A stretch of DNA of 48,119 bases from a virus (IMGVR_UViG_643348551_000006:1-48119); one strand, 5' to 3'. Shown: positions 31,011-48,119, counted from the first letter of the stretch. Translations and numbers: made by a program. Notes: a model not told the origin generated them from the sequence alone.

Positions 31011-31014
31011 GTCA

Positions 31015-34352: not shown

Positions 34353-34480
34353 AGCCTGCTTCTCCTTGCCTTTCGGCACGTAAGAGGCTAACCTGATGTT
34401 GTCATGCATAGGGAGCCTCAGATTAATGTTAAGCGTCTTGCAGGACGCGTAATGTTAACTGGGGCTTTTCTCTATCTGCC
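34353..34480 (-). promoter_or_regulatory. hok leader region (expected mok start, Sok antisense RNA target, fold-back structure)
   Basis: Inverted repeat TCTATCTGCC...GGCAGATAGCC in the 5' leader. By analogy with hok/sok loci; Sok promoter not pinpointed. Confidence 0.35.
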
Positions 34481-34641
34481 TTTTGGTGTTCATGCCTGAG
34501 GCAGATAGCCTCAAGCACCCGCAGCAATTCTACTTAACTCTCCTTTTCCCGCAAACCGTTTTTATCCCCAGCGGCAAATCGAATACACCACCAGCGCCAC
34601 CGCCATCGCAATTCCTACCGTTGTGAATGCTTCAGGCCAGG

Positions 34642-35229: not shown

Positions 35230-35642
35230 TATTTATCTCCCTTAAGCATGGCGGCGCGGCAGGCGTTCCAACCATCAGCATATGTTTCAGTTACACCGTC
35301 GAGATGGCAGGTAAGCAAATCCATTTCATCAGGCACTACCATCGCTGGCGGCGCTGCGTAAAGCGGTGTTATTTCTGCCCGAAAATCACCGACTTTATGC
35401 AGTCGCACCCACCGTTCGGCTTCTGCTTTGTCAGAATACATAGCGGTGAACGTATTATATTCATGGTCAATTTGCGTGAAGGTTGCCTTCCACGCCACCG
35501 GTTCTACTTCCAGCGATGCCAGCGCGATACGAAACACATTAGCAAGCAGGCTGTCTGAAGATTGGTTATCGTGCGCCGCGTCGCTCAGGAAACCAGTGAT
35601 GAATGATTTAATCTCCGCGTTTTCTCTGGTAATAGTGGTCAT
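35229..35642 (-). CDS. Hypothetical nin-region protein (137 aa)
   Basis: ORF in operon orientation, abutting neighbours without gaps. Confidence 0.5.
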   Translation of the reverse strand: MTTITRENAEIKSFITGFLSDAAHDNQSSDSLLANVFRIALASLEVEPVAWKATFTQIDHEYNTFTAMYSDKAEAERWVRLHKVGDFRAEITPLYAAPPAMVVPDEMDLLTCHLDGVTETYADGWNACRAAMLKGDK

Positions 35643-35653
35643 ATCACTCTCCT

Positions 35654-36025
35654 TTAGTACGCAAGTGATTTTTCCAGCGGTTTTGCTCTCCTGCGCTCTT
35701 CCCCAAGCGCATAACGTGCTTCTACCGGGTCTTTGTCTTCATATTCATAATTGACGCTTTTAACCATCGCTACACAGCACTCATTGCAGCATCTATAGGA
35801 CATAAGCTCGCCGTCAAATTTCCATGTTGTGCTGCGGTGTACTTCACCCTTTGAAATTTTTCCGGCGCATATGTGGCATGTATATTCACCGCGAGAGGTA
35901 ACGATTTTATTCGATAACTCAATATCGAATGGCGCACCAAAATCACCTTCAAAAAGATAAAAATCCAGAGCGTCTCCTAAATCTTGTTTACTGTATCTCC
36001 GCTGCTCATGGGTAGTAATAGTCAT
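35654..36025 (-). CDS. Hypothetical Cys-rich (zinc-finger-like) protein; start inferred at MTITTHEQ
   Basis: CHIC...CCNECC motif; internal ATG sits 1 nt after the upstream gene's stop. Confidence 0.45.
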   Translation of the reverse strand: MTITTHEQRRYSKQDLGDALDFYLFEGDFGAPFDIELSNKIVTSRGEYTCHICAGKISKGEVHRSTTWKFDGELMSYRCCNECCVAMVKSVNYEYEDKDPVEARYALGEERRRAKPLEKSLAY

Positions 36026-36026
36026 A

Positions 36027-36245
36027 TCAGTTTTCCTTATACGGATTAATTTTATTGTGCAGTGTATTGAACGACGCCCATACCACGTCGTTATACAATT
36101 CAATAACGGGCTCAATTATTTTCCCGATAAACCAGACCAGTAATAGCGGGGATATCGGTATCATCAACACGATAAACAGAATGAGAAACAGAAATTCTGT
36201 CGCTCTACTTTTTCGCGGATATTCTTTTCTGAATAATGTAGTCAT
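36027..36245 (-). CDS. Small membrane protein (72 aa)
   Basis: Hydrophobic core FLFLILFIVLMIPISPLLLVWFIGKII. Confidence 0.4.
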   Translation of the reverse strand: MTTLFRKEYPRKSRATEFLFLILFIVLMIPISPLLLVWFIGKIIEPVIELYNDVVWASFNTLHNKINPYKEN

Positions 36246-36277
36246 TTCTTACCGCCCTTTCGGGCGGCCTCCTGACA

Positions 36278-36490
36278 TTAATCGTTGTAATAACTCATAG
36301 CTTCATTTGCAGCATCAACTGGATCAACATCCCACCAGCAATAATTTGGCTCGACTCCTTCAGGTGTCCACGGTTCTAATTCATTTTTTGCCGCATTCTC
36401 GTCGCCAGTAATTTTAAAAATCTGCTCAGAAAATTTCCTCACCCACTCGTTATATTTTTCCGTATTAATGGTTTTCTGTGTATTTAACAT
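36278..36490 (-). CDS. Hypothetical protein (70 aa)
   Basis: ORF-track ORF in operon orientation. Confidence 0.4.
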   Translation of the reverse strand: MLNTQKTINTEKYNEWVRKFSEQIFKITGDENAAKNELEPWTPEGVEPNYCWWDVDPVDAANEAMSYYND

Positions 36491-36540
36491 AGATATACCT
36501 CCAGTTAAGGATTTGATTTTATTTACAGTGCTAAATTTAT

Positions 36541-36898
36541 TTATTCAGTTCTGGATTTTGTCGCCCTGCGTATCCGCGCTTTCGCGTTACGCTCAATCTG
36601 AATTAACTTTTCTATATTTTTCCGCCTTTCCTGCTCCTCCTGGCGCAATAGCCTTACATCATCTGCCAGTCTGGTTTCTCTTTTCGCTACTGAGAGCATC
36701 CAGTCAAACGGCTCCACAACTGCACCGCAGATTTTACAGCGGACCTGACGCTCTTTTTCGTCAACCCGGACAGAAGCGTGATGGCAATATGGTCTTTCCG
36801 ATGGCTCATAAAGAAAATTAACCTGATTACGTGGGTCATCCTCTTTTACCGGAAATAAAACAATATTACTTAACTCATCTTCTGGTTTTATTTCCACG
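36541..36898 (-). CDS. Hypothetical zinc-ribbon protein; start inferred at GTG preceded by AAGGAG
   Basis: CHH...CKIC motif; minus strand AAAGGAGAGTGAcGTGGAAATAAAA gives a strong SD before a GTG placed 2 nt after the Ead-like stop. The track ORF extends to 36978. Confidence 0.4.
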
Positions 36899-37456
36899 TC
36901 ACTCTCCTTTGATGCGAACGCCAGCGACGCGTGGCACATTAACTTCCACAATGCGCACAGTTGGTTTGTACATCTCAATTGCTGTCAGCCAGTCAGCGCC
37001 GGTCATGCGCTTTTCTGCATCGCCATTAGTCCACTTAACCGGTACACCAATAGCCTTCATCGCGATTTCTATTTCCCCGGCAATGGCGCTTTTTCCGCAA
37101 CCAGTAAAACCAGATACAACGACAAGAACTTCGCCTTTGGCTGGTTTTATTTCCCGTGCTTCCAGTTCTGCAATGCGCTTTTTTGCTGCCTCCAGTTCAT
37201 CCAGTAATGCCAGCACGGTAGCCGGGCTAGCCTCTGCTATGAATTCTGCGTTTGCATAAGCCTGAGCATCTGTTTCAACCAGGCAGTTAACGTGACATTC
37301 TGCAATCACGCCACCGGGTTCTCCTTTCCATTTTTGACAAACAAAAACCCCTGTTAAATTGCCGTGCTGGTTAACAGATGTATGCCCTACGATGTAGTTT
37401 CCTTTAGTTGCTTTCTCTGCCTTTTCACGCAGCGCCTGAAAGTTAATTTCGCTCAC
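36899..37456 (-). CDS. Ead/Ea22-like protein with a Walker A (P-loop) motif
   Basis: N-terminus MSEINFQALREKAEKATKGNY... typical of Ead/Ea22-like prophage proteins; internal VVSGFTGCGKSAIAG matches GxxxxGK[ST]. Confidence 0.55.
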   Translation of the reverse strand: MSEINFQALREKAEKATKGNYIVGHTSVNQHGNLTGVFVCQKWKGEPGGVIAECHVNCLVETDAQAYANAEFIAEASPATVLALLDELEAAKKRIAELEAREIKPAKGEVLVVVSGFTGCGKSAIAGEIEIAMKAIGVPVKWTNGDAEKRMTGADWLTAIEMYKPTVRIVEVNVPRVAGVRIKGE

Positions 37457-37730
37457 TGGTTGCTGCCTCCTGTCGGAACATCACGATCATCAGGCCATCT
37501 TTTGTTGCTACCCTGGCTGTTGTACCAGGCTCTATGCTGCTAAGGTCAAATGCATCGCAGAACTCATCTAACACTTTCTGGCGTCTCTCCTGTTTGCGGC
37601 GCTTTTCCCACTGCCTCAGAAAAACAGAGGTCACCCACTTCCCCGCGCTGAACATGATGTAAAACCAACCAAGCAGGGCCAACCCCGTGTTGAGGGCTGT
37701 ATCAATCGTTATTGTTGTGTCGATATTCAC
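37443..37730 (-). CDS. Small membrane protein (95 aa)
   Basis: TM segment LALLGWFYIMFSAGKWVTSVF followed by a basic stretch. Confidence 0.4.
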   Translation of the reverse strand: MNIDTTITIDTALNTGLALLGWFYIMFSAGKWVTSVFLRQWEKRRKQERRQKVLDEFCDAFDLSSIEPGTTARVATKDGLMIVMFRQEAATSERN

Positions 37731-38023
37731 TGTGTCTTCTCCTGGAAAATAACCGCATGCCCCAGTTTCTCCGCCAGTGCCAATTCTGCCTTAGCACCTG
37801 CTGACCGCTGCCAGCCTTTCAGCATGTAAATCGCATCCACACAACGAATCATTGCCATGCAAATATCCATGTAGTGTGGCTGTGTCAGCCCGTCCGGAAG
37901 TACTGCCGGGTTTAAGACTGTATGCCCTTCCCGTTTCAGTTCCTCTTCCGCCTTGTGGAACGCCTCACGGTTGAAATTTTTATACCCGGTCATTGGACCG
38001 GCGATATAGACTCTCACCCTCAC
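37727..38023 (-). CDS. DUF4406-family protein (nucleoside 2-deoxyribosyltransferase-like fold)
   Basis: MRVRVYIAGPMTGYKNFNREAFHKAEEELKREGHTVLNPAV... matches the DUF4406 N-terminal signature YIAGPMTG. Confidence 0.6.
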   Translation of the reverse strand: MRVRVYIAGPMTGYKNFNREAFHKAEEELKREGHTVLNPAVLPDGLTQPHYMDICMAMIRCVDAIYMLKGWQRSAGAKAELALAEKLGHAVIFQEKTQ

Positions 38024-38442
38024 GCCATCACCTCCTGAAAATTACCCTGATAAAACGCCAACACTCGCTGCATAACCTCACTCTTCCGGCACTCGCGACA
38101 GATTATGTTCAGGTGCCTGTCGTAGCGGCGTATTTCTCCGTCTGGTAACGACCAGATAAAGTCCGGATCAACTACAGATGTTTTCTTCAGCTTTGCTCTC
38201 GAGAGTTTTTTGCGGGCGTTTTGCCAGTCCTTACGAGCCTGTTCTGACGGGAATAACCCATAGCCAGAGTTGTATACATCCCCACTGGCAACCAGCTCTC
38301 TGGCCAGAACGTTCATCAGATATCTTGTTGCCCCAGTTTTAGTTTCCAGTTGTCTTAACGTCTCGCGCCCACTCTGGCGTACAAGTTCAACAACCTGCCC
38401 TTTAATTTTTTCCCGCTCTTCTTGTGTAAATACTTTTGCCAC
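38020..38442 (-). CDS. Hypothetical protein (140 aa), possibly DNA-binding
   Basis: ORF between the replication protein gene and DUF4406; no firm motif. Confidence 0.4.
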   Translation of the reverse strand: MAKVFTQEEREKIKGQVVELVRQSGRETLRQLETKTGATRYLMNVLARELVASGDVYNSGYGLFPSEQARKDWQNARKKLSRAKLKKTSVVDPDFIWSLPDGEIRRYDRHLNIICRECRKSEVMQRVLAFYQGNFQEVMA

Positions 38443-38482
38443 AAGCCCTCCTGAAAATTACCTCATGACCAGAAATTAACAC

Positions 38483-39703
38483 TTACCCCCTGAACCCCGG
38501 CGGAATTTCGGTGTCCGGTTCAGAAATATGATTCACACAACGCTGGTTGTTCGTGCCGCTTACCGGGAGCAACCAGGGGTTTTCAAAATTCCGGTCCGGT
38601 CCAAAAAACGTCGTCGCTCGCTGAACAAATTCCGTTCCCGTTTTCCCGGTAGCTGCCAGGTATCTTGCGTAACGCCTCACGCCATCCAGCATGGCCTCTG
38701 GTGGCACCCCCTCACGTAATCTGGCCTTCCAGGCACTGAAAGCGGATTTCTTCGGGTTTGCCCCGGCACGCAACGGGTACTCCCGCCAGACCTGTTCGAA
38801 CACATCCGGATAATCCACTCGTCCCACAGACAGCCCGGTGTTTTCCGGGACTACCCGATCGGCTTCCCGCTGAATGGCGGAATCGGCTTCAGGCTGCTGC
38901 AGTTGGTGTGATTGCTCCGGCCTTGGGGTCATCACCTGCTGCACAGCGCCCGAATCGGCTTTCAGCGCATACGCTGAATCGGCTTCCGGTGTCGTGCCTG
39001 CTGGCTGACCAGGATTGACGGTCTGAACATCCCCTGCCTGGTTCGTGGTGTTTTTTTCGCCATGAACCATAGTGTTTTTGTCCTGTTCCTGTTCTTTCTC
39101 CTGCTCCTGTTCTTGGCTTCGAAGCCCCTTAAAAGCCCCTTCGAAGCCCCTTACCGAATTTCGGCTATTATTCCGCCTCACATCCAGATGGAAATCCGTT
39201 TTATATCTGTCGTAAAACGCTGACAGAAAAGCGTTTTCAGGTAATGATGCATACTCATTCCTGACACCTGCACAACGGTTATCGCCAGGCTTCAACGTTT
39301 TCCCAACCTGCCAGGCTGCCATTTCATGGACCCAGACCATCTCGGCATCATGGTCATAGCTACAAAAACCAGCTTCAACAGCCCTTTTAAGCCCCTTTGA
39401 AGCCCCTTCCAGACCAAGCCCGGTTTCATGAGCAAGGTATAAAACTGGCAGGTAATACAAACCCAGCATATTTGCGTGAGGGGATGTCATCAGGTAAAAA
39501 GCAACAACTTGCGCTTCTGCACCCGCCTTTCTAAGTTCTCTCCCCGTTTCTCCCAGCCAGAATCGCGGAGAAACTTTTGCGTAATCACGCATGGCTACCT
39601 CATCTGGTGCCGAACCTTCCTCCGGATATAATCTGTGGTTCCCAATCGACAGAACCAGAGGAGGTTCGACATGTATTTTTTGAAAAGCCTTTATCAGGCT
39701 CAT
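38483..39703 (-). CDS. Putative phage replication initiation protein (YdaU/DUF1376-like)
   Basis: 406 aa; N-terminal ...SPRFWLGETGRELRKAGAEAQVVAFYLMTSP...; Gln/Glu-rich linker; C-terminal conserved segment ...YPDVFEQVWREYPLR...; sits downstream of Cro/YdaT-like genes. Moderate, by eye. Confidence 0.5.
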   Translation of the reverse strand: MSLIKAFQKIHVEPPLVLSIGNHRLYPEEGSAPDEVAMRDYAKVSPRFWLGETGRELRKAGAEAQVVAFYLMTSPHANMLGLYYLPVLYLAHETGLGLEGASKGLKRAVEAGFCSYDHDAEMVWVHEMAAWQVGKTLKPGDNRCAGVRNEYASLPENAFLSAFYDRYKTDFHLDVRRNNSRNSVRGFEGAFKGLRSQEQEQEKEQEQDKNTMVHGEKNTTNQAGDVQTVNPGQPAGTTPEADSAYALKADSGAVQQVMTPRPEQSHQLQQPEADSAIQREADRVVPENTGLSVGRVDYPDVFEQVWREYPLRAGANPKKSAFSAWKARLREGVPPEAMLDGVRRYARYLAATGKTGTEFVQRATTFFGPDRNFENPWLLPVSGTNNQRCVNHISEPDTEIPPGFRG

Positions 39704-39809
39704 GTATTAAATGTTGCAGCAACAAACCGCTGGTGTAACAGCCCCGAAATGCTCCCGGATTACAGAGCCTGGCTGCGCGCCGAAACATACCTTCGTCTCG
39801 ACATATTGA

Positions 39810-40319
39810 TTAGCGAACTTCAAAAAGAGACTGCATCCATTCATAACCTTCAGGGTATCGACGCTGTTCGCATTCTGGTATCGCGCCATAGTGCTCTCTC
39901 AATAATTGAAGTGCGTCATCTCTCTTTTTCTGAACTGATTTTCTTGCTTCAACCAGCTCTGGAATCAGCGAATATCCCACCGGAAGTGATCCAATACCCA
40001 CCTCATGTTGACGAGCAGTTACAAGATGTGCCATACAACCAGCGTGCTGGATTGACTCCCTGCTCAGAGGCTGAATGGGATCACTCTCTGCTGAAGAAAT
40101 ACCAAGATTTGTATAATCCTCAATAAGCCCGGCACACGCTTCTGCATCAGCCAGCTTTATTCTGGTTTCCTTGCGCTGTTCTCTGGCTGACAAACGCCAG
40201 AGCAGCGCATTAGCTTTATGTATCAACCACTCTGCCAGCTCCACATCAGATAAACCGCCACGCCAGATGTGCGGACTGTTTTCGTAAACGCTCAGTGTCA
40301 ATTTTTTGTCATTACTCAT
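39810..40319 (-). CDS. Hypothetical early-region protein (169 aa from MSNDKKLTL)
   Basis: ORF-track ORF trimmed to the first Met that does not overlap the upstream gene. Confidence 0.4.
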   Translation of the reverse strand: MSNDKKLTLSVYENSPHIWRGGLSDVELAEWLIHKANALLWRLSAREQRKETRIKLADAEACAGLIEDYTNLGISSAESDPIQPLSRESIQHAGCMAHLVTARQHEVGIGSLPVGYSLIPELVEARKSVQKKRDDALQLLREHYGAIPECEQRRYPEGYEWMQSLFEVR

Positions 40320-40332
40320 ATTTATTACCCAA

Positions 40333-40758
40333 TTAATGCACAGCCAGAGTGTTTCCTGCCGGGCCACCACGATTCATCTGATTGAAACCAGCGATCGCCA
40401 CTGCGACAAAATCATCAGCGTCTCTCACCAGTCGTTCCCGCGTCTCCACCAGCTCCCGAAACCAGGCTGAACTGTGGCTGCGCATTCGGGCCACCAGCAG
40501 AGGAGGCATTGCTTTTTCGATCGCTGGTAACAACGCCTGAATTTTTTCAACTGCATCAGGGGTGTCTTTCTCCACCCAGCGGAAAATTTTCTGAGTATTG
40601 CGAGCCAGGGCTTCCGGATGGCTGTCGTCATACAGTTCCGGGAACGTCATTCCCAGCTCGAAATACGCTTTGGTAATTTTCGCAGCCGGTACTTTTTCGC
40701 CGTCCGGATGCGCCCAGGCATTCATCGCCATGCGGATATGTTCATGTTTGATTTTCAT
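40333..40758 (-). CDS. YdaT-family protein (CII-position early regulator)
   Basis: N-terminus MKIKHEHI... and overall similarity to Rac prophage YdaT; immediately downstream of the Cro-like gene. Confidence 0.6.
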   Translation of the reverse strand: MKIKHEHIRMAMNAWAHPDGEKVPAAKITKAYFELGMTFPELYDDSHPEALARNTQKIFRWVEKDTPDAVEKIQALLPAIEKAMPPLLVARMRSHSSAWFRELVETRERLVRDADDFVAVAIAGFNQMNRGGPAGNTLAVH

Positions 40759-40982
40759 GAATCACTCTTCCTTTTGTCCCGGGTGGTATCCTTCTTTTTG
40801 TAAAGCTCTGGGTTCAAAGATAATTTTCCCTTGGAGTATGCAGCAGCTTCCGCAGCTCTCCCTTTCGGAACTATTTCACCGGGGCGCTTACGCCACATGT
40901 AAATAGCTTCGCGGGTTATCCCATAAAAATCAGCGACCCTCTGAACAGAGCCAAAAAACTGAACAAGTTCATCAACTCGCAT
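40755..40982 (-). CDS. Cro/YdaS-like HTH DNA-binding protein
   Basis: 75 aa with HTH (VADFYGITREAIYMWRKR); divergent from the CI gene across an operator-bearing intergenic region. Confidence 0.65.
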   Translation of the reverse strand: MRVDELVQFFGSVQRVADFYGITREAIYMWRKRPGEIVPKGRAAEAAAYSKGKLSLNPELYKKKDTTRDKRKSDS

Positions 40983-41078
40983 TTCACTCTCCTAAAATCT
41001 AAGTATTTTTAGATTACAAAATAATTTTTTTTTGGTCAATGCAATCTAAAATAATTTATATTCAACTCGCGGGAGAAA
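40983..41078. promoter_or_regulatory. Immunity-region operator/promoter interval between divergent cro-like and cI-like genes
   Basis: AT-rich 96 bp with palindrome ATCTAA-gtattt-TTAGAT and a related half-repeat aatctaaaataatttata. Confidence 0.55.
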
Positions 41079-41726
41079 ATGATGGAAAGCCTTGGCATCA
41101 GGCTTAAGAAACTCAGAAAAGATAAGGGACTCACCCAAGTAGAACTGGGTAAGCTTTCAGGCGTGACTGGGGTTACTATAGGGTACTGGGAGAAAGATCT
41201 AAACGAACCCGGCAGCAAAGCTCTAAGTAAGTTAGCCCAGGCATTAGGAACTACTGAGTCCTATCTCCTGTATGGAGTATCGTCTCCTGAACTATCTTTT
41301 GTGCAGAGCAATCCAGGCACCAAGATCCCCTACTTTTCGTGGGGTGACGCGATTTCTTTCCTAATCTTAGAAGGAGAGAAAACAATGGGAAATGTCGATA
41401 GGATCACCACATTCTTTGATGTAGTGGAAGGTGATTTTGCCGTTTCAATGCCTGATGACACTATGCATAACCCCTCAGGGTCACCAAGTATCCCGGTTGG
41501 TGCCACTGTGATCCTAAGACCAGGAGAGAGTTATAAAAATGGCAGTATCGTCGCTGTAATAGTTCCAGATCCACTTACAAATGAACCGTCTATGACTATA
41601 AAAAAATTAGTTATTGATGGAAAACTTGTGTATTTAAGCCCTCTCAATCCGCGCTATCAATCATCCTTGCTTACGCCAGAGTGTAAAATTGTTGCCGTAG
41701 CAAAAGGTGTGCAGTTCAACCTATAA
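41079..41726 (+). CDS. cI: CI-type prophage repressor (N-terminal HTH, C-terminal S24 LexA-like autopeptidase domain)
   Basis: HTH LTQVELGKLSGVTGVTIGYWE; C-terminal S24-like region ...KLVIDGKLVYLSPLNP.... Not DicA-like, which lacks the peptidase domain. Confidence 0.85.
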   Translation: MMESLGIRLKKLRKDKGLTQVELGKLSGVTGVTIGYWEKDLNEPGSKALSKLAQALGTTESYLLYGVSSPELSFVQSNPGTKIPYFSWGDAISFLILEGEKTMGNVDRITTFFDVVEGDFAVSMPDDTMHNPSGSPSIPVGATVILRPGESYKNGSIVAVIVPDPLTNEPSMTIKKLVIDGKLVYLSPLNPRYQSSLLTPECKIVAVAKGVQFNL

Positions 41727-41789
41727 CCCTGCCATGTCCTTGAACTTAAGGTCGGTTATGCCGACCTTTTTTTTAAATTAATTTAGATT

Positions 41790-41830
41790 CCCCTTGACTA
41801 TAAAACTAAATACTTTTAGATTTATTGCAT
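41790..41830 (+). promoter_or_regulatory. Candidate PL-like promoter with operator copy upstream of ydfA
   Basis: ccccTTGACTataaaaCTAAAtacttTTAGATttattg: -35 TTGACT overlapping a copy of the intergenic operator palindrome. Confidence 0.45.
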
Positions 41831-42003
41831 ACCAACCCACCCCGCCCCACAGAATGCAGGGCAATACTTCGAGTTACCAGGCAGTGGTCAGGGGTTAAGT
41901 AGCCAGCCCGAGGCGTAAGAACATGACGGCAGGGTTCAACTTTAATAACTATGCAGCAGGTTTTTGTTCCGCTACCCCGGCGTTAAGGGGAAATGAGGTC
42001 AGC

Positions 42004-42159
42004 ATGGATACTATCAATCTTGGCAACAACGAATCTCTGGTGTACGGCGTGTTTCCCAACCAGGACGGCACATTCACCGCGATGACGTATACCAAAAGCA
42101 AAACGTTTAAAACCGAATCTGGCGCGCATCGCTGGCTGGAAAGAAATTCAGGTGAGTGA
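42004..42159 (+). CDS. ydfA: YdfA-like small protein (51 aa)
   Basis: MDTINLGNNESLVYGVFPNQDGTFTAMTYTKSKTFKTESGAHRWLERNSGE; matches Qin YdfA in length and sequence as recalled. Confidence 0.7.
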   Translation: MDTINLGNNESLVYGVFPNQDGTFTAMTYTKSKTFKTESGAHRWLERNSGE

Positions 42160-42160
42160 T

Positions 42161-42289
42161 ATGGATTTCGACGCAATCATGGAAAAGGCTTACGAAGAAT
42201 ACTTCGAAGGCCTTGCCGAAGGCGAAGAAGCTCTCAGCTTCAGTGAGTTTAAACAGGCGCTTTCCAGTTCGGCAAAATCTAACGGCTGA
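42161..42289 (+). CDS. ydfB: YdfB-like small protein (42 aa)
   Basis: Hand translation MDFDAIMEKAYEEYFEGLAEGEEALSFSEFKQALSSSAKSNG starting 2 nt after the ydfA stop; spacing and size match Qin ydfB. Confidence 0.6.
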   Translation: MDFDAIMEKAYEEYFEGLAEGEEALSFSEFKQALSSSAKSNG

Positions 42290-42318
42290 TAAGCGAAACA
42301 GCACCGCGAGGAATCAGT

Positions 42319-42537
42319 ATGCAGAAACCAGAGCCCGTCATCATCGCTCCAGGTTATACCGATGACGAAATTTACGAATGGATGATCAAGAAAGTTAAGG
42401 CGGCGCAGGATCTGAAATGGGCCTGTGACTCCAGAGAACTGCAGGTCAAAAACCTGTCAGAACTGGATAAGGAAATTGCCAGTCTTACAGAGGCGACATC
42501 ATTGAACGTAGCCAAAGTGGCTGTACACCTGCGTTAA
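42319..42537 (+). CDS. ydfC: YdfC-like protein (72 aa)
   Basis: MQKPEPVIIAPGYTDDEIYEWMIKKVKAAQDLKWACDSRELQVKNLSELDKEIASLTEATSLNVAKVAVHLR. Confidence 0.7.
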   Translation: MQKPEPVIIAPGYTDDEIYEWMIKKVKAAQDLKWACDSRELQVKNLSELDKEIASLTEATSLNVAKVAVHLR

Positions 42538-42556
42538 TATCAAGCCAACGAGATTA

Positions 42557-42760
42557 ATGATGGAAGAGACAGAACTTAAACACATTATCGCCTTACTTTT
42601 GGAAGACGCAAAACGTCTACAGCAACTGGAACCAAATGCAGGCACAGAGGCCCGCATTTGGATTGCCATGAAATCACTCAAATGTGAAAGCAGTGATTAT
42701 TTCAAAACAACAATTAAAACTACTCAACTTTCGGGAGAGCTACTGAAGAAATTGCCATAA
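42557..42760 (+). CDS. Hypothetical ORF (67 aa) in the dicB operon leader
   Basis: ORF-track ORF; overlaps a convergent minus-strand ORF; coding status uncertain. Confidence 0.3.
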   Translation: MMEETELKHIIALLLEDAKRLQQLEPNAGTEARIWIAMKSLKCESSDYFKTTIKTTQLSGELLKKLP

Positions 42761-42998
42761 GAGCATGGTCTTTCTCTTGTTCTGCAAGATGCGCATTAAT
42801 ACCTGGTATGGTTTTTTCAAATTTATCTATCTGTTGAATAACAACTTCGCGGTATACGTTTGTTTTTGTACCACCAAGCGCAGCCGTTAATGCAGAAAGC
42901 ATATTTAGTATCATATCAGTGCGATATGAAAGAATCCTGATAGCTTCATCTTGTTTTTCAATAATAGATTGCAGGGCCTCAATTTGCTTTTTATCCAT
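42720..42998 (-). CDS. Hypothetical antisense ORF (92 aa from MDKKQIEAL) inside the dicB operon leader
   Basis: Coiled-coil-like composition; opposite orientation to the surrounding operon; coding status uncertain. Confidence 0.25.
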   Translation of the reverse strand: MDKKQIEALQSIIEKQDEAIRILSYRTDMILNMLSALTAALGGTKTNVYREVVIQQIDKFEKTIPGINAHLAEQEKDHALMAISSVALPKVE

Positions 42999-43318
42999 TT
43001 CACCCTCCTGAGGGTTGGTAATTAAGGAGTTCTCCACGGGTGAGGTGGAGTGCGTGCGCCGGACACGGGTGAGCATCCGGCACTGACAGTTTACTGAAAG
43101 GATATGTCCCTGAAAGTCAGGGCATAACGCGAAAGCGCACGGCGAAATTGGTCTCTCTGTACGGTGTCGTTAAATTTAGTTCGACCGTGCGCTTCCGGTT
43201 GTGGCACTCCGCGAAATGGCGCGGAGGTAAGTATGGCGGGGTTATTCCTTCCCCGTTGAGGACACCGGGTTGTCAGGTTGACCATACGCTTAAGTGACAA
43301 CCCCGCTGCAACAACCCA

Positions 43319-43375
43319 TGTTGATTACCTTTTGGCGGCATCAGTTTCATTGCTGGCTGATGTCCGCCCTTTTTA
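43319..43375 (+). ncRNA. dicF: DicF-like small RNA (cell-division/ftsZ-regulating sRNA family)
   Basis: TTTGGCGGCATCAGTTT...GCTGATGTCCGCCC then TTTTT: the GGCGG-(C/T)ATCAGTTT core and intrinsic terminator resemble E. coli DicF (from memory); located upstream of dicB as in Qin. Confidence 0.5.
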
Positions 43376-43377
43376 AA

Positions 43378-43541
43378 GTGAATTTTGTGATGCGGTGAAT
43401 GCGGCTCAGCGCACGCGGAACAGTTAAAAAGGCCAGTTGACTTCCGTATTGGTTCTTATGGGTGGGTTCTCTGTATCCGGCGTTAATTGTTAACTGGTTA
43501 ACGTCACCTGGAGGCACCAGGCACCGCATCACAAAATTCAT
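43378..43541 (+). repeat. Perfect 19-20 bp inverted repeat (GTGAATTTTGTGATGCGGTG ... CACCGCATCACAAAATTCA) spanning ~125 nt just upstream of dicB
   Basis: Read directly from the sequence; arms at 43378..43397 and 43523..43541. Candidate long RNA stem (RNase III-type processing site) in the dicB operon transcript. Confidence 0.6.
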
Positions 43542-43557
43542 TGTTGAGGACGCGATA

Positions 43558-43746
43558 ATGGAAACGTTATTACCAAACGTCAATACGTCTGAAGGTTGTT
43601 TTGAAATTGGTGTCATAATCAGTAACCCTGTATTTACTGAAGATGCCATTAATAAGAGAAAACACGAACGGGAGCTATTAAATCAAATATGCATTGTTTC
43701 AATGCTGGCCCGTTTACGCCTGATGCAAAAAGGACGCTGCCAATGA
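43558..43746 (+). CDS. dicB: Cell division inhibitor DicB
   Basis: METLLPNVNTSEGCFEIGVIISNPVFTEDAINKRKHERELLNQICIVSMLARLRLMQKGRCQ, 62 aa, near-identical to E. coli DicB. Confidence 0.85.
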   Translation: METLLPNVNTSEGCFEIGVIISNPVFTEDAINKRKHERELLNQICIVSMLARLRLMQKGRCQ

Positions 43747-43946
43747 ATACAGCATTTGCACTCGTTCTGACAGTTTTTCTTAATACAGGCGAACCAGTCG
43801 ATCTTGTTATTGGTATACATGACTCAATGAAAGAATGCATGGCTGCCGCAGCGGAACAGAAAATTCCCGGCAACTGTTATCCGGTTGATAAAGTTATTCG
43901 CATGGACAATAACGAAATCCCGGCAGGACTTAAAACAGCACCGTAA
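43743..43946 (+). CDS. ydfD: YdfD-like protein
   Basis: MNTAFALVLTVFLNTGEPVDLVIGIHDSMKECMAAAAEQKIPGNCYPVDKVIRMDNNEIPAGL...; start overlaps the dicB stop (ATGA). Confidence 0.8.
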   Translation: MNTAFALVLTVFLNTGEPVDLVIGIHDSMKECMAAAAEQKIPGNCYPVDKVIRMDNNEIPAGLKTAP

Positions 43947-44023
43947 TTAATATCCGGTTTCATTTTTATATGCCAGCAATGGCAGGGATTTGTTCACCCT
44001 AAAAATAGTTACGAGGTTTATCA

Positions 44024-46483
44024 ATGAGCGCTGATAAAGAAGAAATTGCACTATATTACGAAGCCAAAAATGACAAAGTCAGAAAACGCCTTGGGATTAA
44101 AGGCGGTTTTTACTGGCGCACAGCAAAAAAATTATCGATTGCAATATCACGCGGTGTTGTCGCAATGGACGATGCCGGATTTGACGAAGAGGATTTTAAA
44201 AAACCTGTTCGCGTCCATTTACCCGTTGTGAATGACCTTCCTCCGGAAGGCGTGTTTGATACCGAATTCTGCAACCGATACGAAAAAGGCGGGGAAGATG
44301 GTATCACAATGGTACTTATCGCGCCCTCTGTTCAGGACAAACCAGCCAGCACTGACAATACCAACGTCAACGGTGAAGACATGACTGAGATTGAGGAGAA
44401 TATGCTCCTGCCAGTTTCAGGTCAGATTCTGCCTGTTCGATGGCTGGCGCAACACAACAGCGAAAAACCGATCACGCACGTTTCGCAGGACGAACTGCGC
44501 GCATTACATAACGCACAGGATGAAAAACTTCCCGCCGTTACCGCGCTGGCCATCTCAAATAAAGCAGCGCAACTCGAACCACTGGAAATTCGCGATCTCC
44601 ACAAACTGGTACGCGACACTGACAAAGTTTTCCCTAATCCTGGTAATTCAGACCTGGGACTGATGACCGCTTTTTTCGAAGCATACCTGGGCGCTGACTA
44701 CACCGATCGCGGTCTGCTTACAAAAGAGTGGATGAAAGGAAATCGTGTTTCACGCATCACCCGCACGGCTTCCGGTGCTAATGCCGGTGGAGGGAACAAA
44801 ACCGATCGCAATCCGAATTTAGTACACACCTTTGATACGCTGGATGTGGAGATTGCAGCGGCCACACTTCCGATGGATTTTAATATTTATGAAATTCCGG
44901 GCAGCGTTTATCGTCGCGCAAAAGAAGTCGTCCGGAAGAAAGAAAGTCCGTTCAAAGAATGGTCCGCAGCACTTCGCGCAATCCCGGGTATCCTGGATTA
45001 TTCCCGCGCCGCTATTTTTGCACTTATCCGGAGCGCACACCCTGAGTTTTATCATTACCCGGGACGCCTTCAGGGGTATATCAACGCCTATTTAACGGAG
45101 ACTGATCACGAGAACCCTACCGAGGAAACTCTCGCTGCTGCACGACATACACCGGAAAAAGATATCCTGGAAGAAGTTAACCGCGAACTGGCTGCTGAAC
45201 GCGAAACAGAAGAAGAAAAAAATAATGAGGAAAAATCACAACCGTCTGACGCAATGGCAGATGAACAGGCAACGGCTGAAACAATGGAGCCGGATACAAC
45301 TGAACATCGCCAGGACACGCAATCGCTGGATACTCAGGCGCAGATAGATCCGGTTAATCAGGTAAAAGTTACCGCTGACGAAGTAAACAAAATTATGCAG
45401 GCAGCCAATATCAACCAGCCTGATGCCGACAAAATACTGGCAGTCCATCGCGGTGAGTTCGTTGATGGCATTAGCGACCCGAATGATCCGAAATGGGTGA
45501 AGGGGATTGAAACCCGCGATTCTGTAAACCAGAACCAGCAAGAATCGGAACAGAACGACCAGAAAGCGGAACAAAACAGCCAAAATGCGTTACAAAACGA
45601 GCCAGAAACGAAACAACCTGAGCCAGTAGCGCAACAGGAAGCGGAAAAAGTCTGCACCGCCTGCGGTCAGACCAGCGGCGGCAACTGCCCAGATTGTGGT
45701 GCGGTGATGGGCGACGCAACGTATCAGGAAACCTTTAATGAAGAAAATCTGGATGAATCTCAGGAAAAAGATCCGGAGGAAATGGAAGGCGCTGAACATC
45801 CACACAAGGAGAATGCTGGCAGCTATCAGGACCACGCCAGCGATAGCGAAACTGGCGAGACGGCAGATCCCTTAATTGCGGTGAACGGTCATCACGTTAT
45901 CACATCCACCAGCAGAGTGTGGTACCACCTGATGATCGACCTTGAAACGATGGGTAAAAAAAGTAATGCCCCCATCGTGGTTATTGGTGCTGTGTTCTTC
46001 GATCCGCAGACCGGGGAAATCGGGCCAACATTTTATATCGTTATCAGCCTGGTTGACGCTATGGACACGGGTGCTGTTCCTGATGGTTCCACCATCGAAT
46101 GGTGGCTTGCTCAGTCCAGCGAAGCCAGATCTGCAATTTTAGTTGATCAGGTAAAACTGGTTGACGCTCTTATTCAATTTCGGGAATTCATCAATGAGTA
46201 CTCGGATGAAAAATTCGTTCAGGTATGGGGCAATGGTGCAACTTTCGACAACACTATTTTACGAACCTCGTACGAACGCCTGAACATCCCCTGCCCGTGG
46301 CGTTACTACAACGATCGCGATGTACGTACAATCGTTGAACTGGGAAAAACTATCGGCTTCGATGCCAGAACAGTTATTCCATTTGAAGGCATGCGCCACA
46401 ATGCGCTGGATGATGCCCGTCACCAGGCAAAATACGTTACAGCTACGATACAAAAACTGATCCCGAGTCAGGCTGATTTTTAA
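44024..46483 (+). CDS. Large early-left protein (819 aa, YdfE-like N-terminus): unknown N-terminal domain, acidic linker, CxxC...CxxC zinc ribbon, C-terminal DEDDh (DnaQ-like) 3'-5' exonuclease domain
   Basis: C-terminal motifs MIDLETMG (Exo I), GNGATFDNTIL (Exo II), HNALDDARHQAKY (Exo III); zinc ribbon CTACGQTSGGNCPDCG; occupies the exo/recE position of lambdoid phages. Confidence 0.7.
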   Translation: MSADKEEIALYYEAKNDKVRKRLGIKGGFYWRTAKKLSIAISRGVVAMDDAGFDEEDFKKPVRVHLPVVNDLPPEGVFDTEFCNRYEKGGEDGITMVLIAPSVQDKPASTDNTNVNGEDMTEIEENMLLPVSGQILPVRWLAQHNSEKPITHVSQDELRALHNAQDEKLPAVTALAISNKAAQLEPLEIRDLHKLVRDTDKVFPNPGNSDLGLMTAFFEAYLGADYTDRGLLTKEWMKGNRVSRITRTASGANAGGGNKTDRNPNLVHTFDTLDVEIAAATLPMDFNIYEIPGSVYRRAKEVVRKKESPFKEWSAALRAIPGILDYSRAAIFALIRSAHPEFYHYPGRLQGYINAYLTETDHENPTEETLAAARHTPEKDILEEVNRELAAERETEEEKNNEEKSQPSDAMADEQATAETMEPDTTEHRQDTQSLDTQAQIDPVNQVKVTADEVNKIMQAANINQPDADKILAVHRGEFVDGISDPNDPKWVKGIETRDSVNQNQQESEQNDQKAEQNSQNALQNEPETKQPEPVAQQEAEKVCTACGQTSGGNCPDCGAVMGDATYQETFNEENLDESQEKDPEEMEGAEHPHKENAGSYQDHASDSETGETADPLIAVNGHHVITSTSRVWYHLMIDLETMGKKSNAPIVVIGAVFFDPQTGEIGPTFYIVISLVDAMDTGAVPDGSTIEWWLAQSSEARSAILVDQVKLVDALIQFREFINEYSDEKFVQVWGNGATFDNTILRTSYERLNIPCPWRYYNDRDVRTIVELGKTIGFDARTVIPFEGMRHNALDDARHQAKYVTATIQKLIPSQADF

Positions 46484-46552: not shown

Positions 46553-46804
46553 ATGAGCGAAGTAATCATGATTGTCTCTCCCGGTAAATGGGTATCCGAA
46601 GAACAGCTAATTGCGCTGAAAGGAATAAAAAAGGGAACGCTAAAAAAAGCCAGGGAAAAATCGTTTATGGAAGGAAGGGAATATAAGCATGTAGCCCATG
46701 ACGGTATGCCATGGGATAACAGCCCATGCTTTTACAACCTGGAAGAAATTGATCGCTGGATTGAACGTCAGGCATCAGCAAGACCAAGACGTCATCTTAC
46801 TTGA
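46553..46804 (+). CDS. xis: Excisionase-like protein (Xis)
   Basis: 83 aa immediately upstream of int; ...GKWVSEEQLIALKGIKKGTLKKAREKSFMEGREYKHV...YNLEEIDRWIERQ resembles Rac/Qin-type excisionases. Confidence 0.6.
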   Translation: MSEVIMIVSPGKWVSEEQLIALKGIKKGTLKKAREKSFMEGREYKHVAHDGMPWDNSPCFYNLEEIDRWIERQASARPRRHLT

Positions 46805-46838
46805 CTAAAAACAATACTAACCAATGAGAGAAGCTAAA

Positions 46839-48119
46839 ATGAAATATCCGACAGGCGTGGAAAACCATGGAGGGAAATTACGTATCTGGTTTGTTTATAA
46901 AGGTGTAAGAGTCAGGGAAAATCTGGGGGTTCCTGACACGACAAAAAACAGGCGCATTGCAGGTGAGCTGCGCGCCTCTGTTTGTTATGCAATAAAAACC
47001 GGCGTTTTCGACTATGCAAAACAGTTTCCCTCCTCACACAATCTGGAAAAATTTGGTGAGGCCCGACAAGATTTAACCATAAAGGAACTGGCTGAAAAAT
47101 TTCTGGCACTGAAAGAAACGGAAGTCGCAAAAACGTCACTCAACACGTACCGTGCCGTCATCAAAAATATTCTGAGCATAATCGGTGAAAAAAATCTTGC
47201 CTCGTCGATTAATAAAGAAAAATTGCTGGCGGTACGTAAAGAGTTACTTACTGGTTACCAGATCCCCAAAAGTAATTATATTGTTACGCAACCGGGGAGA
47301 TCGGCTGTCACCGTAAATAATTACATGACAAATCTTTACGCCGTGTTCCAGTTTGGTGTTGATAACGGTTACCTGGCAGATAATCCGTTTAAGGGGATCT
47401 CGCCATTAAAGGAATCAAGAACCATTCCTGATCCTCTTTCACGGGAGGAATTTATCCGTCTTATCGACGCCTGCAGAAATCAGCAGGCCAAAAATTTATG
47501 GTGTGTTTCTGTTTATACAGGCATTCGCCCTGGTGAACTGTGTGCGCTTGGGTGGGAGGACATAGATCTGAAAAATGGAACAATGATGATCAGGAGAAAT
47601 TTAGCAAAAGATCGTTTTACGGTACCGAAAACACAGGCTGGTACCAATCGGGTAATTTACCTTATCAAGCCTGCAATCGACGCTCTCAGGAGTCAGATGA
47701 CACTAACGAGGCTGAGCAAAGAACATATTATTGACGTTCACCTCAGAGAGTTCGGCAGAACAGAAAAACAAAAATGCACCTTTGTTTTTCAACCTGAAGT
47801 GTCAGCGAGAGTAAAAAATTATGGTGACCATTTTACCGTTGACTCAATAAGGCAGATGTGGGACGCAGCGATAAAACGTGCCGGACTCCGCCACCGCAAA
47901 TCATATCAGTCGAGACATACTTATGCCTGCTGGTCGCTGACAGCCGGTGCCAACCCGGCATTCATAGCAAACCAGATGGGACATGCAGATGCGCAAATGG
48001 TGTTTCAGGTATACGGGAAATGGATGTCTGAAAACAATAATGCACAGGTAGCCCTGCTAAATACACAGCTAAGCGAGTTTGCCCCAACCATGCCCCAAAA
48101 CGAGGTGGCGCAAAATTAA
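46839..48119 (+). CDS. int: Tyrosine-recombinase integrase; start at MKYPTGVENHGG (track ORF begins 46824); stop is the last codon of the window
   Basis: N-terminal arm-binding-type domain (KLRIWFVYKGVRVRENLG), catalytic region ...R...HxxR...Y with ...SRHTYACWSL...; full length. Confidence 0.85.
   Translation: MKYPTGVENHGGKLRIWFVYKGVRVRENLGVPDTTKNRRIAGELRASVCYAIKTGVFDYAKQFPSSHNLEKFGEARQDLTIKELAEKFLALKETEVAKTSLNTYRAVIKNILSIIGEKNLASSINKEKLLAVRKELLTGYQIPKSNYIVTQPGRSAVTVNNYMTNLYAVFQFGVDNGYLADNPFKGISPLKESRTIPDPLSREEFIRLIDACRNQQAKNLWCVSVYTGIRPGELCALGWEDIDLKNGTMMIRRNLAKDRFTVPKTQAGTNRVIYLIKPAIDALRSQMTLTRLSKEHIIDVHLREFGRTEKQKCTFVFQPEVSARVKNYGDHFTVDSIRQMWDAAIKRAGLRHRKSYQSRHTYACWSLTAGANPAFIANQMGHADAQMVFQVYGKWMSENNNAQVALLNTQLSEFAPTMPQNEVAQN

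Follow-up and report, generated by a model that had tools for sequence, protein, structure and literature searches.

A RecE-type scaffold carrying a DEDDh exonuclease domain in the early-left operon of a lambdoid prophage

At the early-left position where lambdoid phages encode Exo/RecE-type recombination nucleases, the viral DNA considered here (IMGVR_UViG_643348551_000006:1-48119; the whole stretch of 48,119 nt is referred to below as the window) carries a gene for a large protein with DnaQ-like exonuclease motifs, which raises the question of what kind of enzyme occupies this slot and what it would do for the prophage. The gene (44024..46483, + strand) is a complete coding sequence of 819 aa plus stop, combining a RecE-type scaffold with a DEDDh exonuclease, and it runs from ATG to stop without an internal stop codon, with a GAGG Shine-Dalgarno sequence 7 nt 5′ of the ATG; the intact 819-aa early-left gene of a preliminary description is thus indeed present in the Exo/RecE slot. 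That description had also considered that the protein might be a fusion artefact of two genes, which is ruled against by several observations. The Pfam families PF06630 and PF16473 are found together in one uninterrupted ORF in all 120 of the best 120 database clusters listed, phages mEp460_ev081 and Tritos also carry an uninterrupted RecE-scaffold/DEDDh ORF, and dN/dS lies at 0.11-0.45 across every module of the protein, all of which are under purifying selection. The RefSeq annotation of the gene is often wrong, giving a pseudogene and a shorter ORF.

The N-terminal ~400 aa, earlier taken to be devoid of any recognizable motif, proved to belong to a known family. Pfam assigns aa 56-187 (44189..44584, +) to PF06630 (Exonuc_VIII, the N-terminal RecE family; E 7.9e-26), and aa 1-619 align to positions 1-603 of the 877 positions of the NCBIfam RecE model NF007259, the whole protein, at 896.9 bits, not reaching the equivalog cut-off of 1269 of that model. 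With BLASTP, aa 58-618 align to residues 50-591 of the Rac RecE of K-12 (exodeoxyribonuclease VIII, b1350) at 56% identity, in an alignment that includes the ribbon and the linker and ends there; nothing significant was obtained against RecE residues 592-866, the PD-(D/E)xK domain of RecE being absent. The folded N-terminal region common to RecE, aa 1-400 (44024..45223, +), has a confident predicted fold, yet it has no match among known structures. It contains a conserved glycine-rich loop, RTASGANAGGGNKTDR (aa 247-262; 44762..44809, +), as judged from the consensus of 49 diverse family members. The GANAGGGNKT stretch of this loop was considered as a Walker A motif and rejected, since the GK[ST] spacing is missing and K259 is Leu in Rac RecE. 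The N-terminal module, with a dN/dS of 0.11-0.17, is functionally constrained, and among 150 representatives it is joined to varied C-terminal domains (25 PD-(D/E)xK and 15 DEDDh).

Between the N-terminal region and the DEDDh domain extends a disordered, acidic and QN-rich tether of ~230 aa that bears a small Cys4 ribbon. Its first part, aa 401-535 (45224..45628, +), is Q/N/E-rich in composition and predicted to be disordered (pLDDT <50 over aa 401-440). It is followed by the zinc-ribbon-like motif CTAC...CPDC (aa 544-558; 45653..45697, +), which is common to Rac RecE, its cysteines being C544xxC547...C555xxC558, and by an acidic linker (aa 566-630; 45719..45913, +) with 26% D+E and pLDDT <50, the order of CxxC...CxxC ribbon and acidic linker being the one described beforehand. 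The ribbon cysteines are kept in 117-120 of 120 homologues, with a model confidence of only ~52 at this place. Homology to RecE stops at aa 618, inside the acidic linker, which is the domain-swap junction. Because aa 58-618 correspond to the N-terminal region of RecE, the protein is, by alignment, a RecE paralogue in which the catalytic domain alone has been exchanged, and the modular architecture, a RecE scaffold with DEDDh in place of PD-(D/E)xK, can be regarded as close to certain. Rac RecE and the window protein accordingly share a homologous N-terminal region, a QN/acidic tether and a Cys4 ribbon, the CPDCGAVMGDATYQETF block conserved in RecE being identical in the two, and both genes occupy the early-left slot upstream of xis-int. 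They differ in that Rac RecE ends in a PD-(D/E)xK 5′→3′ dsDNA exonuclease where the window protein has DEDDh instead, and in that Rac RecE is neighboured by racC/kilR and has recT downstream, whereas the gene in the window is neighboured by dicB/ydfD and has no recT.

The DEDDh 3′-5′ exonuclease domain occupies aa 635-807 (45926..46444, +) and matches PF16473 (Rv2179c/DexA-like) with E 1.5e-67 and 227.2 bits against a gathering threshold of 27, covering positions 2-175 of the 177 positions of the profile. The DxE, NxxxFD and HxxxxD motifs noticed in the preliminary description are all in place as D639-L-E641 (Exo I; 45938..45946, +), N737-GATF-D742 (Exo II; 46232..46249, +) and H792-NALD-D797 (Exo III; 46397..46414, +), and they are intact rather than degenerate, D639, E641, D742, H792 and D797 being invariant among the 120 closest homologues; the domain has a dN/dS of 0.21. 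In the AF2 model the domain has a pLDDT >90 and a DnaQ fold, for which Foldseek returns T4 DexA (8KEL) as the top match (E 1.3e-12, TMt 0.69-0.75), with RNase T and Orn next; 8KEL is also the nearest PDB sequence match by phmmer (E 4e-11). Since DexA is the best match in both sequence and fold, DNA would be preferred over RNA as the substrate, and the protein is likely to be a DNA 3′→5′ exonuclease, predicted to act from the DNA end opposite to that of RecE (3′→5′ versus 5′→3′). The name of the domain in Pfam and PGAP is 3′-5′ exoribonuclease, and PF16473 includes an RNase (Rv2179c).

Residue by residue, D7/E9, D119, H186 and D191 of T4 DexA (8KEL/8KEN) correspond to D639/E641, D742, H792 and D797 of the window domain, to which DexA shows only ~30% identity; it is a free-standing protein of 227 aa with extra loops, and it comes from a virulent phage with hmC DNA. 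The Rv2179c protein of M. tuberculosis (RNase AS), which gave PF16473 its name, shares the Pfam family and the DEDDh chemistry; as an exoribonuclease it is specific for RNA, and it stands alone as a bacterial protein, unlike the scaffold-borne domain of the window. A phmmer search of the PDB with the domain did not reach it at E≤1. The E. coli protein EcD/HREX (HAK9828821.1; PMC12153337) is, as the window domain, a DexA-like DEDDh exonuclease, and is probably of the same enterobacterial prophage clade, a placement made from published residue numbering. EcD appears to be short and stand-alone and has Ala at the DexA-D90 position, whereas the window protein keeps Asp714 and a 620-aa RecE scaffold; anti-T4 activity has been shown for EcD only. 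This closest functionally tested bacterial homologue is a reported anti-T4 defence nuclease (PMC12153337), an observation that speaks against a recombination role.

Two features of the HREX/EcD type are lacking in the window protein, the loss of the tetramer-forming Asp (DexA D90), with D714 kept in 120 of 120 homologues, and the Trp equivalent to DexA W152, a position which in the window is Tyr (Y762; 46307..46309, +, placed by alignment with DexA and close homologues). No site of the domain varies more than residue 762, which is Y in 55, H in 45, C in 17 and S in 3 of 120 close homologues; its variants occur on several backgrounds and inside an invariant motif. Such variability at the equivalent of a DexA substrate-recognition site would fit an arms-race better than a housekeeping role. 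At the other DexA sites, S87 is Lys in the window protein, and D169, whose acidic equivalent is a further feature of the HREX/EcD type, aligns with F779, next to which stand G778 (an Asp in 99 of the 120 homologues) and D780.

The early-left operon of this lambdoid prophage is of the dicBF type and under repressor control, and the exonuclease gene is its final gene ahead of xis-int. A gene for a cI-like repressor (HTH + S24 peptidase; 41079..41726, +) is followed by a terminator-like hairpin (41748-41768) and by a pL-like promoter candidate (41794-41822) that would drive the exonuclease operon, whose operon-proximal part consists of small ydfA/ydfB/ydfC-like genes (41923..42537, +; DUF1391) with 90% nt identity to the Qin ydfABC of K-12. 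Further along lies a DicF-like sRNA (43319..43369, +), overlapped by a terminator-like hairpin (43337-43364); DicF was not detected by Rfam at gathering thresholds, the match (34.1 bits, GA 48, E 2.9e-5) being a sub-threshold one from a permissive search. dicB (43561-43746, +) stands immediately upstream of ydfD (DUF1482; 43743-43946, +), which in turn stands immediately upstream of the exonuclease gene, and the latter is directly followed by the excisionase (46553-46804, +) and then the integrase (46824-48119, +), with no recT between the exonuclease gene and xis-int. The ydfE gene of K-12 Qin, which holds the slot after dicB-ydfD, was considered as a truncated copy of the exonuclease gene and rejected, BLASTP showing no similarity. 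No promoter-like site was found directly upstream of the exonuclease gene, and its expression would therefore depend on the repressed early-left promoter.

That no annealase gene is evident nearby, as had been stated earlier, was borne out by tblastn with RecT, lambda Bet, Exo and Gam, which gave no match at E≤0.01 in the whole window, and by Pfam and PHROG scans, which returned no annealase among the early ORFs; anti-RecBCD types besides lambda Gam are excluded solely through the lack of Pfam/PHROG labels on the small ORFs. The defence models of PADLOC-DB v2 yielded 0 families at E≤0.01, and an anti-defence family was matched neither in Pfam nor in PHROGs.

The prophage contains 12 Chi sites against 2.1 ± 1.3 expected, a number reached by 0 of 100 shuffles; 9 of the 12 are on the strand equivalent to the lambda top strand, and all fall within 28980-45913, the right 40% of a lambda-type map. 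One of them, GCTGGTGG (45906..45913, − strand), lies in the codons S628-T629-S630 at the linker/DEDDh junction of the exonuclease gene and is found at the same position in 9 of 9 DEDDh loci examined. A class of lambdoids termed “Tritos” has been described as having a nuclease only, with no SAP and no anti-RecBCD, and as being Chi-rich (PMC12315714). The prophage fits this class, the nuclease being the sole gene of its Rec module (no SAP, SSB or anti-RecBCD) and Chi being abundant, mostly in active orientation and clustered toward the right end; the same study terms one-gene Rec modules “somewhat suspect” (PMC12315714). Tritos (TRITO_27) and mEp460_ev081, in which the protein is called “exonuclease VIII”, have the same order ydfABC-DicF-dicB-ydfD-exo-xis-int as the window, and like the window they have no SAP and no anti-RecBCD and a Chi-rich genome. 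Their tether and DEDDh domain show 71-77% aa identity to the window protein, whereas the N-terminal ~400 aa of these proteins belong to another sequence type, of which only aa 268-358 align, at 39%.

The preliminary description had treated the gene as peculiar to one phage, a view that does not hold, since, with coverage set at ≥80%, roughly a fifth of complete E. coli genomes (1187 of 5426) have the architecture. The gene is among the commonest E. coli prophage genes; it is also found in phages Tritos and mEp460, and Stx-phage relatives are included among its carriers. The DEDDh allele of the window is the rarer one, with a 98% match only in two Brazilian chicken isolates. A related-locus search with the single protein returned 10 loci, all from Escherichia/Shigella or mis-binned MAGs. 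Across the nine DEDDh loci compared (the window, L001, L002, L004, L005, L008-L010 and L018), dicB is upstream in every case and tblastn found no RecT match in the 5-8 kb flanks of any. xis-int lies directly downstream of the DEDDh gene wherever that flank was identified, be it by annotation (L001, L002, L004, L005, L018) or by tblastn with the xis and int of the window (the window, L004, L008, L010), whereas in Rac-type loci recT is directly downstream in every one. In Citrobacter phage phiNP a standalone DEDDh homologue adjoins xis-int. The family is already catalogued and has recently been noted in print, DnaQ-like nucleases in lambdoid recombination modules having been reported in 2025 (PMC12315714); a description of a RecE scaffold fused to an Rv2179c-like/DEDD domain was not found in the literature searched.

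The explanation preferred as a whole, given somewhat less than an even chance, is that the protein is a 3′→5′ exonuclease of DNA ends which needs no RecT and acts together with the RecBCD/RecA of the host. Upon prophage induction the protein would be made with the early-left transcript, and its RecE-type N-terminal module would bring it to the target of RecE, presumably linear DNA ends or recombination/replication intermediates, it being an assumption that this region targets DNA ends. Two-metal catalysis by D639, E641, D742 and D797, with H792 as the general base, would then remove nucleotides from DNA 3′ ends, and this trimming of 3′ tails or flaps may turn the ends into substrates for RecBCD loading, from which Chi-dependent recombination and replication could proceed, the phage relying on host RecBCD-Chi-RecA. 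The step of blunting ends for RecBCD is proposed from the genetics of E. coli ExoI and ExoX and has no direct support in the sequence. Both of these are 3′→5′ DNases acting on recombination substrates (ExoX with a DnaQ fold), and they serve as the reference for the DnaQ-like nucleases of Rec modules in PMC12315714, but both belong to the housekeeping set of the host and have no RecE scaffold, and no close sequence relationship to the window protein was found. The specific role in vivo, that of an accessory end-processing nuclease, is proposed more tentatively still. Having no RecT partner and a polarity wrong for 3′ tails, the protein would therefore not be a single-strand-annealing recombinase of the Red/RecET type. 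It has to be noted that homologous recombination is as a rule hindered, not helped, by 3′→5′ exonucleases of the DnaQ type (PMC12315714), which counts against the proposed role.

The main rival, rated as unlikely, is an inter-phage exclusion nuclease in the manner of HREX, which would preferentially degrade the base-modified DNA (5hmC or other) of superinfecting T-even-type phages and, together with DicB, shield the lysogenic or the induced cell against competitors. EcD is reported to cleave T4 genomic DNA while leaving unmodified dsDNA intact, leaky expression already being enough to protect cells from T4 (PMC12153337); among solved structures its relative DexA stands nearest to the domain, and A78 of EcD, the equivalent of DexA D90, would fit the indel pattern of the domain if EcD starts at the equivalent of M637. 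The variability of Y762 within an otherwise invariant motif points in the same direction, as does the company that the gene keeps: the second gene upstream codes for DicB, an established exclusion factor (PMC6832061), spontaneous firing of dicBp is seen in a subpopulation of cells and stress sets it off as well (PMC10448788), and a standalone homologue lies beside xis-int in phage phiNP. Against this stand the replacement of Trp152 by Tyr, the retention in all 120 homologues of the Asp that EcD has lost, the lack of a PADLOC match and the dependence on a repressed promoter; exclusion would moreover leave a 600-aa RecE scaffold under strong purifying selection unexplained, and HREX is known from a single study. 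A broader version, which we regard as more unlikely still, sees the RecE N-terminal region as an autonomous targeting module onto which phages would fit exchangeable nuclease “warheads” of opposed polarity; the DEDDh version would be a weapon directed at rival phages and not a recombination enzyme, with its modified-DNA specificity tuned by recurrent Y/H/C/S substitutions at 762. If this were true, the dicBF operon would be a multi-layer exclusion cassette, in which DicB keeps DNA out and the nuclease breaks down what has entered.

A 3′→5′ exoribonuclease like Rv2179c/RNase AS, RNase T or Orn, acting for example on early-left transcripts, sRNAs (DicF) or host RNAs, would agree with the naming of the Pfam family after Rv2179c, with the PGAP name of the homologues, with RNase T and oligoribonucleases as the next-best fold matches and with an operon that encodes a processed sRNA (PMC10448788). 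It is nevertheless improbable, as the DNase DexA is clearly closest by sequence and fold while Rv2179c was not among the PDB matches, the scaffold is one known from a DNA recombination nuclease, and RNase III and RNase E already account for the processing of DicF (PMC10448788). Slightly less probable again is a counter-defence nuclease that destroys a defence nucleic acid, such as retron msDNA or another DNA/oligonucleotide signal. RecE-family proteins do meet defence nucleic acids, because retron msDNA is a substrate of Rac RecE in vivo, and the retron toxin is blocked by RacC, whose gene lies upstream of that for RecE; in that study, however, RecE triggers the defence rather than providing escape from it (bioRxiv 10.1101/2020.06.22.160242). 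Early expression would suit such a role, but for a 3′→5′ enzyme there is no particular target to suggest, and the Pfam and PHROG searches gave no anti-defence family. No lambdoid phage is known to break down the host chromosome, and no endonuclease partner for bulk host-DNA breakdown is seen in the early-left operon. Both points, and a RecE scaffold left unexplained, make nucleotide scavenging highly improbable. This is the classical role of T4 DexA, in which pieces of host DNA are broken down to mononucleotides that feed the synthesis of phage DNA; scavenging from host DNA is among the functions described for DexA (PMC12153337), and the homology of the domain to it is the argument in favour.

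What the ~600-aa N-terminal part of RecE does has been a question since that protein was dissected, and a 2023 review labels this part “of unknown function” (PMC11611040); the same review, citing Fu 2012, reports that linear-linear recombination is enhanced by full-length RecE. Strong purifying selection acts on the RecE scaffold here too, where it bears a nuclease of opposite polarity and has no RecT, which argues for a scaffold function independent of RecET-type annealing, and the occurrence of PD-(D/E)xK and DEDDh domains on one scaffold offers a natural construct pair for testing that function. As the gene is so widespread in complete E. coli genomes and so often mis-annotated in RefSeq, its correct description is of practical annotation value. 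It is also the sole “recombination” gene of Chi-rich lambdoids that are apparently RecBCD-dependent (PMC12315714), and its role therefore bears on their replication and recombination.

The exonuclease gene (44024..46483, + strand) runs from its ATG to the stop codon as one open reading frame of 819 aa with zero internal stops, and a GAGG Shine-Dalgarno sequence lies 7 nt 5′ of the ATG. The encoded protein carries a zinc-ribbon motif (C544xxC547...C555xxC558), an acidic linker (aa 566-630, D+E = 26%) and the Exo motifs D639-L-E641, N737-GATF-D742 and H792-NALD-D797, so that the intact frame, the cysteines, the exonuclease motifs and the acidic linker named in the preliminary description are all present. 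Its two possible weaknesses can be set aside: the motifs are not degenerate, since none of the catalytic residues varies among the 120 closest homologues (and they are almost fully conserved in 14 distant representatives), and the uninterrupted frame is no fusion artefact. It has to be noted that RefSeq/PGAP often divides this intact ORF into a “RecE family exodeoxyribonuclease” pseudogene and a shorter “3′-5′ exoribonuclease domain-containing protein”. At L001, one of the compared DEDDh loci (6001-8466, NZ_CP182374.1), the pseudogene part takes up the first ~169 codons and the second feature begins at an internal Met, yet the reading frame is unbroken, and the two-feature split is therefore an annotation artefact; it recurs in most of the database matches H26-H45 and is systematic for the exonuclease family.

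The C-terminal part of the protein is a DEDDh domain, with PF16473 (Rv2179c-like 3′-5′ exonuclease) covering aa 635-807 over essentially the whole profile (Pfam, E 1.5e-67). The sole significant sequence matches in the PDB are 8KEL and 8KEN (E 4e-11), which represent the 227-aa DexA exonuclease of phage T4 (PMC12153337) and in which D7/E9, D119, H186 and D191 align with D639/E641, D742, H792 and D797. When aa 530-819 were modelled with AlphaFold, pLDDT exceeded 90 over aa 630-819 but was ~52 in the ribbon and <50 in the acidic linker. Phages commonly have the domain, which tblastn located in 1402 of 50,697 phage records. A stand-alone DEDDh exonuclease with 55% identity to the window's domain is encoded by Citrobacter phage phiNP (L019 5013-5486), where it lies directly 5′ of xis-int and is preceded by a gene for an adenine methyltransferase. 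In this genomic slot the domain is thus also carried on its own, free of the RecE scaffold.

That scaffold makes up the rest of the protein. The N-terminal domain, described as unknown in the preliminary description, turns out to be that of RecE: BLASTP aligns aa 58-618 with residues 50-591 of K-12 Rac RecE at 56% identity, including the near-identical blocks NTNVNGEDMTEIEENMLLP and CPDCGAVMGDATYQETF, and PF06630 (Exonuc_VIII) covers aa 56-187 (Pfam, E 7.9e-26). The alignment takes in both ribbon and acidic linker, and the similarity ends at ETGE(T/V)ADP(L/V)I; N-terminal region, ribbon and linker together are therefore the N-terminal two-thirds of RecE, whose nuclease domain has been placed at residues 564-866 (2023 review). 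In the NCBIfam RecE equivalog, aa 1-619 align to positions 1-603 of 877, and the score of 897 bits lies below the cut-off of 1269 bits because the final third of the model is without counterpart. By sequence, it is the catalytic domain alone that differs from RecE. The protein thus belongs to both PF16473 and the PF06630 N-terminal family but does not count functionally as a RecE/ExoVIII: it lacks both the PD-(D/E)xK domain and a RecT partner, and its equivalog score is too low.

The N-terminal family is narrow, a search of aa 1-420 against 1.84 billion cluster representatives having returned just 220 relatives, and its retrieved loci are essentially enterobacterial. Among the 150 best representatives, 25 have RecE-type PD-(D/E)xK C-termini and 15 have DEDDh domains; the remainder include some without Pfam matches and one RecT fusion (P0124, 703 aa; PF03837, E 1e-42). 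The scaffold has therefore been combined with various C-terminal modules. Other C-termini are seen in P0124, P0126, P0171, P0185, P0189, P0190 and P0212, and several members of 690-815 aa have C-terminal halves without a Pfam match. PMC12315714 mentions “RecE-2” proteins that have no nuclease domain, to which these variants may correspond. Across 49 diverse members, the strongly conserved motifs are a glycine-rich loop, RTxxGxNAGGGxxTDR (aa 247-262, 44762-44809), and PVVxDLPxEG (aa 67-88), where P73 never varies and D71, E75 and Y86 rarely do, a pattern that looks like a putative binding or active site.

All modules of the gene are under purifying selection. When the window gene was compared with three diverged copies (L002, L005 and L008), dN/dS was 0.11-0.17 in the N-terminal region, 0.15-0.23 in the QN linker, 0.27-0.35 in the zinc ribbon, 0.35-0.45 in the acidic linker and 0.21-0.22 in the DEDDh domain. 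In the same comparison the N-terminal region has a dS of 0.07-0.43 but the DEDDh domain one of ~0.9, and the gene is therefore an intragenic mosaic, as confirmed by the identity of L002 to the window (N-terminal 98%, linker 87%, DEDDh 73.5%); mEp460, L009 and L010 share the tether and DEDDh domain but have another N-terminal type joined to them. The DEDDh allele of the window is rare: two E. coli isolates match it at ~98% identity and phage Evi at 86.5%, and elsewhere identity is ~72%. The PF06630+PF16473 architecture is present in all 120 best protein clusters among the matches listed, and the gene occurs in the sequenced phages mEp460_ev081 and Tritos. At least 80% of it is covered in 1187 of 5426 complete E. 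coli genomes (best match 98.4% identity), and an at least partial nucleotide match is found in 4743 of them, a count that includes Rac recE.

The window is a chromosomal lambdoid prophage. Positions 4-1284 hold a host MFS transporter gene (- strand; PF07690, E 2.6e-37), and the left end is therefore host chromosome, with the prophage boundary further right; the Nu1, gpA and portal genes are on the - strand, and the integrase at the other end has 94.7% identity to K-12 intQ (Qin). In the early-left operon, a cI-like repressor gene (41079-41726) is followed by a terminator-like hairpin, a promoter-like site (41794-41822) and then ydfA/B/C-like genes, DicF, dicB, ydfD/DUF1482, the exonuclease gene, xis and int; no promoter-like site was found directly 5′ of the exonuclease gene. 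The DicF-like sRNA (43319-43369, + strand; 34.1 bits against a gathering score of 48, E 2.9e-5) has its own terminator hairpin, and its 5′ part, the antisense region, departs from the Rfam consensus; it is adjoined by a sub-threshold STnc100 match (43381-43535, + strand; 33.7 bits against 47). A 118-aa ORF on the antisense strand of the operon (42720-43076, - strand; PHROG 18692, E 1.4e-62, unknown function) separates the ydfC-like gene from DicF. Closely related dicB-ydfD operons hold differing cargo in the exonuclease slot. In all nine DEDDh loci, namely the window, L001, L002, L004, L005, L008, L009, L010 and L018, dicB precedes the exonuclease gene, and xis-int is directly 3′ wherever the flank was identified by annotation or tblastn. 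The K-12 Qin pseudogene ydfE (L006 5079-5999), considered as a relative, is unrelated despite its same slot after dicB-ydfD.

RecT gave no match in the fetched flanks of the nine DEDDh loci; in every Rac-type locus recT is directly downstream. With tblastn, lambda Exo, Bet, Gam and Kil, as well as RecT, were found in neither the window nor the other DEDDh loci, and neither Pfam nor PHROG detected an annealase or Gam among the early ORFs. Chi octamers (GCTGGTGG) are enriched in the window: 12 copies are present where 2.1 ± 1.3 would be expected, a count not attained in any of 100 shuffles. The - strand, which by packaging-gene orientation is the equivalent of the lambda top strand, carries nine of them, in the orientation that is active for RecBCD coming in from the right cos end. 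All 12 lie within 28980-45913, corresponding to the rightmost 40% of a lambda-type map, in a cluster spanning the lysis-to-early-left part, with zero in the 27 kb of structural genes. Such a pattern is found in lambdoids without anti-RecBCD functions (Zheng et al., Genome Res 2025, PMC12315714), which include a “Tritos” class having a nuclease only, without SAP or anti-RecBCD, and Chi counts of 21/6 to 7/2; Tritos has an orthologous gene and the gene order of the window. The same study states that DnaQ-like enzymes of this type usually inhibit recombination and calls one- or two-gene modules “somewhat suspect”. One Chi (45906-45913, - strand) lies inside codons S628-T629-S630, a few codons past the end of RecE homology and immediately ahead of the DEDDh domain. 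All nine DEDDh loci have this Chi at the same relative position, even with the domain only 72% identical; its presence may be coincidental, given the conserved STS codons, or may be connected with the mosaic junction.

In the model proposed here, the protein would be a Mg-dependent 3′→5′ exonuclease acting on DNA ends, likened in its predicted activity to DexA/ExoX-type DNases but mounted on a RecE-type scaffold that would deliver the nuclease. It would be produced with the early-left transcript and would cooperate with host RecBCD-RecA instead of being a recombinase of the Red/RecET type. Trimming of 3′ tails might let RecBCD load, which is the weakest step and is drawn by analogy with ExoI/ExoX genetics. 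That the protein is instead an exoribonuclease appears improbable; Foldseek places DexA at the top (E 1.3e-12, TMt 0.69-0.75), with RNase T and oligoribonucleases next. A counter-defence role is slightly more doubtful still, although Rac RecE does degrade retron msDNA (bioRxiv 10.1101/2020.06.22.160242), and nucleotide scavenging is very improbable.

The likeliest of the alternatives is an exclusion nuclease like EcD, the E. coli DexA homologue behind the “HREX” defence reading, which reportedly cleaves T4 DNA but leaves unmodified DNA uncut, and shields cells against T4 (Kang et al., NAR 2025, PMC12153337). In DexA, W152 and D169 are required for hmC DNA, and S87 and D90 for tetramer formation (PMC12153337). 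In the window protein Tyr762 takes the place of W152 and Lys711 that of S87, D169 aligns with F779 (between G778 and D780), and D714 preserves D90. Measured against the sequence criteria that those authors applied to EcD, it therefore falls short and is not an EcD-type HREX protein. Residue 762 (codon 46307-46309), within the invariant motif PCPWRY-x-NDRDVRT, is nonetheless the most variable position of the domain (entropy 1.58 bits; Y55/H45/C17/S3 in 120 close homologues), with Y and H each recurring on several backgrounds, which would fit diversifying selection on substrate recognition and, with it, an HREX-like role. On balance, such a role is considered unlikely.

The family itself is already abundant, database-named and mentioned in a 2025 paper (PMC12315714). 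What is added here is the explicit domain-swap reading of the exonuclease gene and its hypervariable W152-equivalent site, a link between the gene and a Chi-rich, RecBCD-dependent lifestyle, and the finding that the RecE scaffold, an orphan module that is constrained and foldable, is paired with nucleases predicted to be of both polarities.
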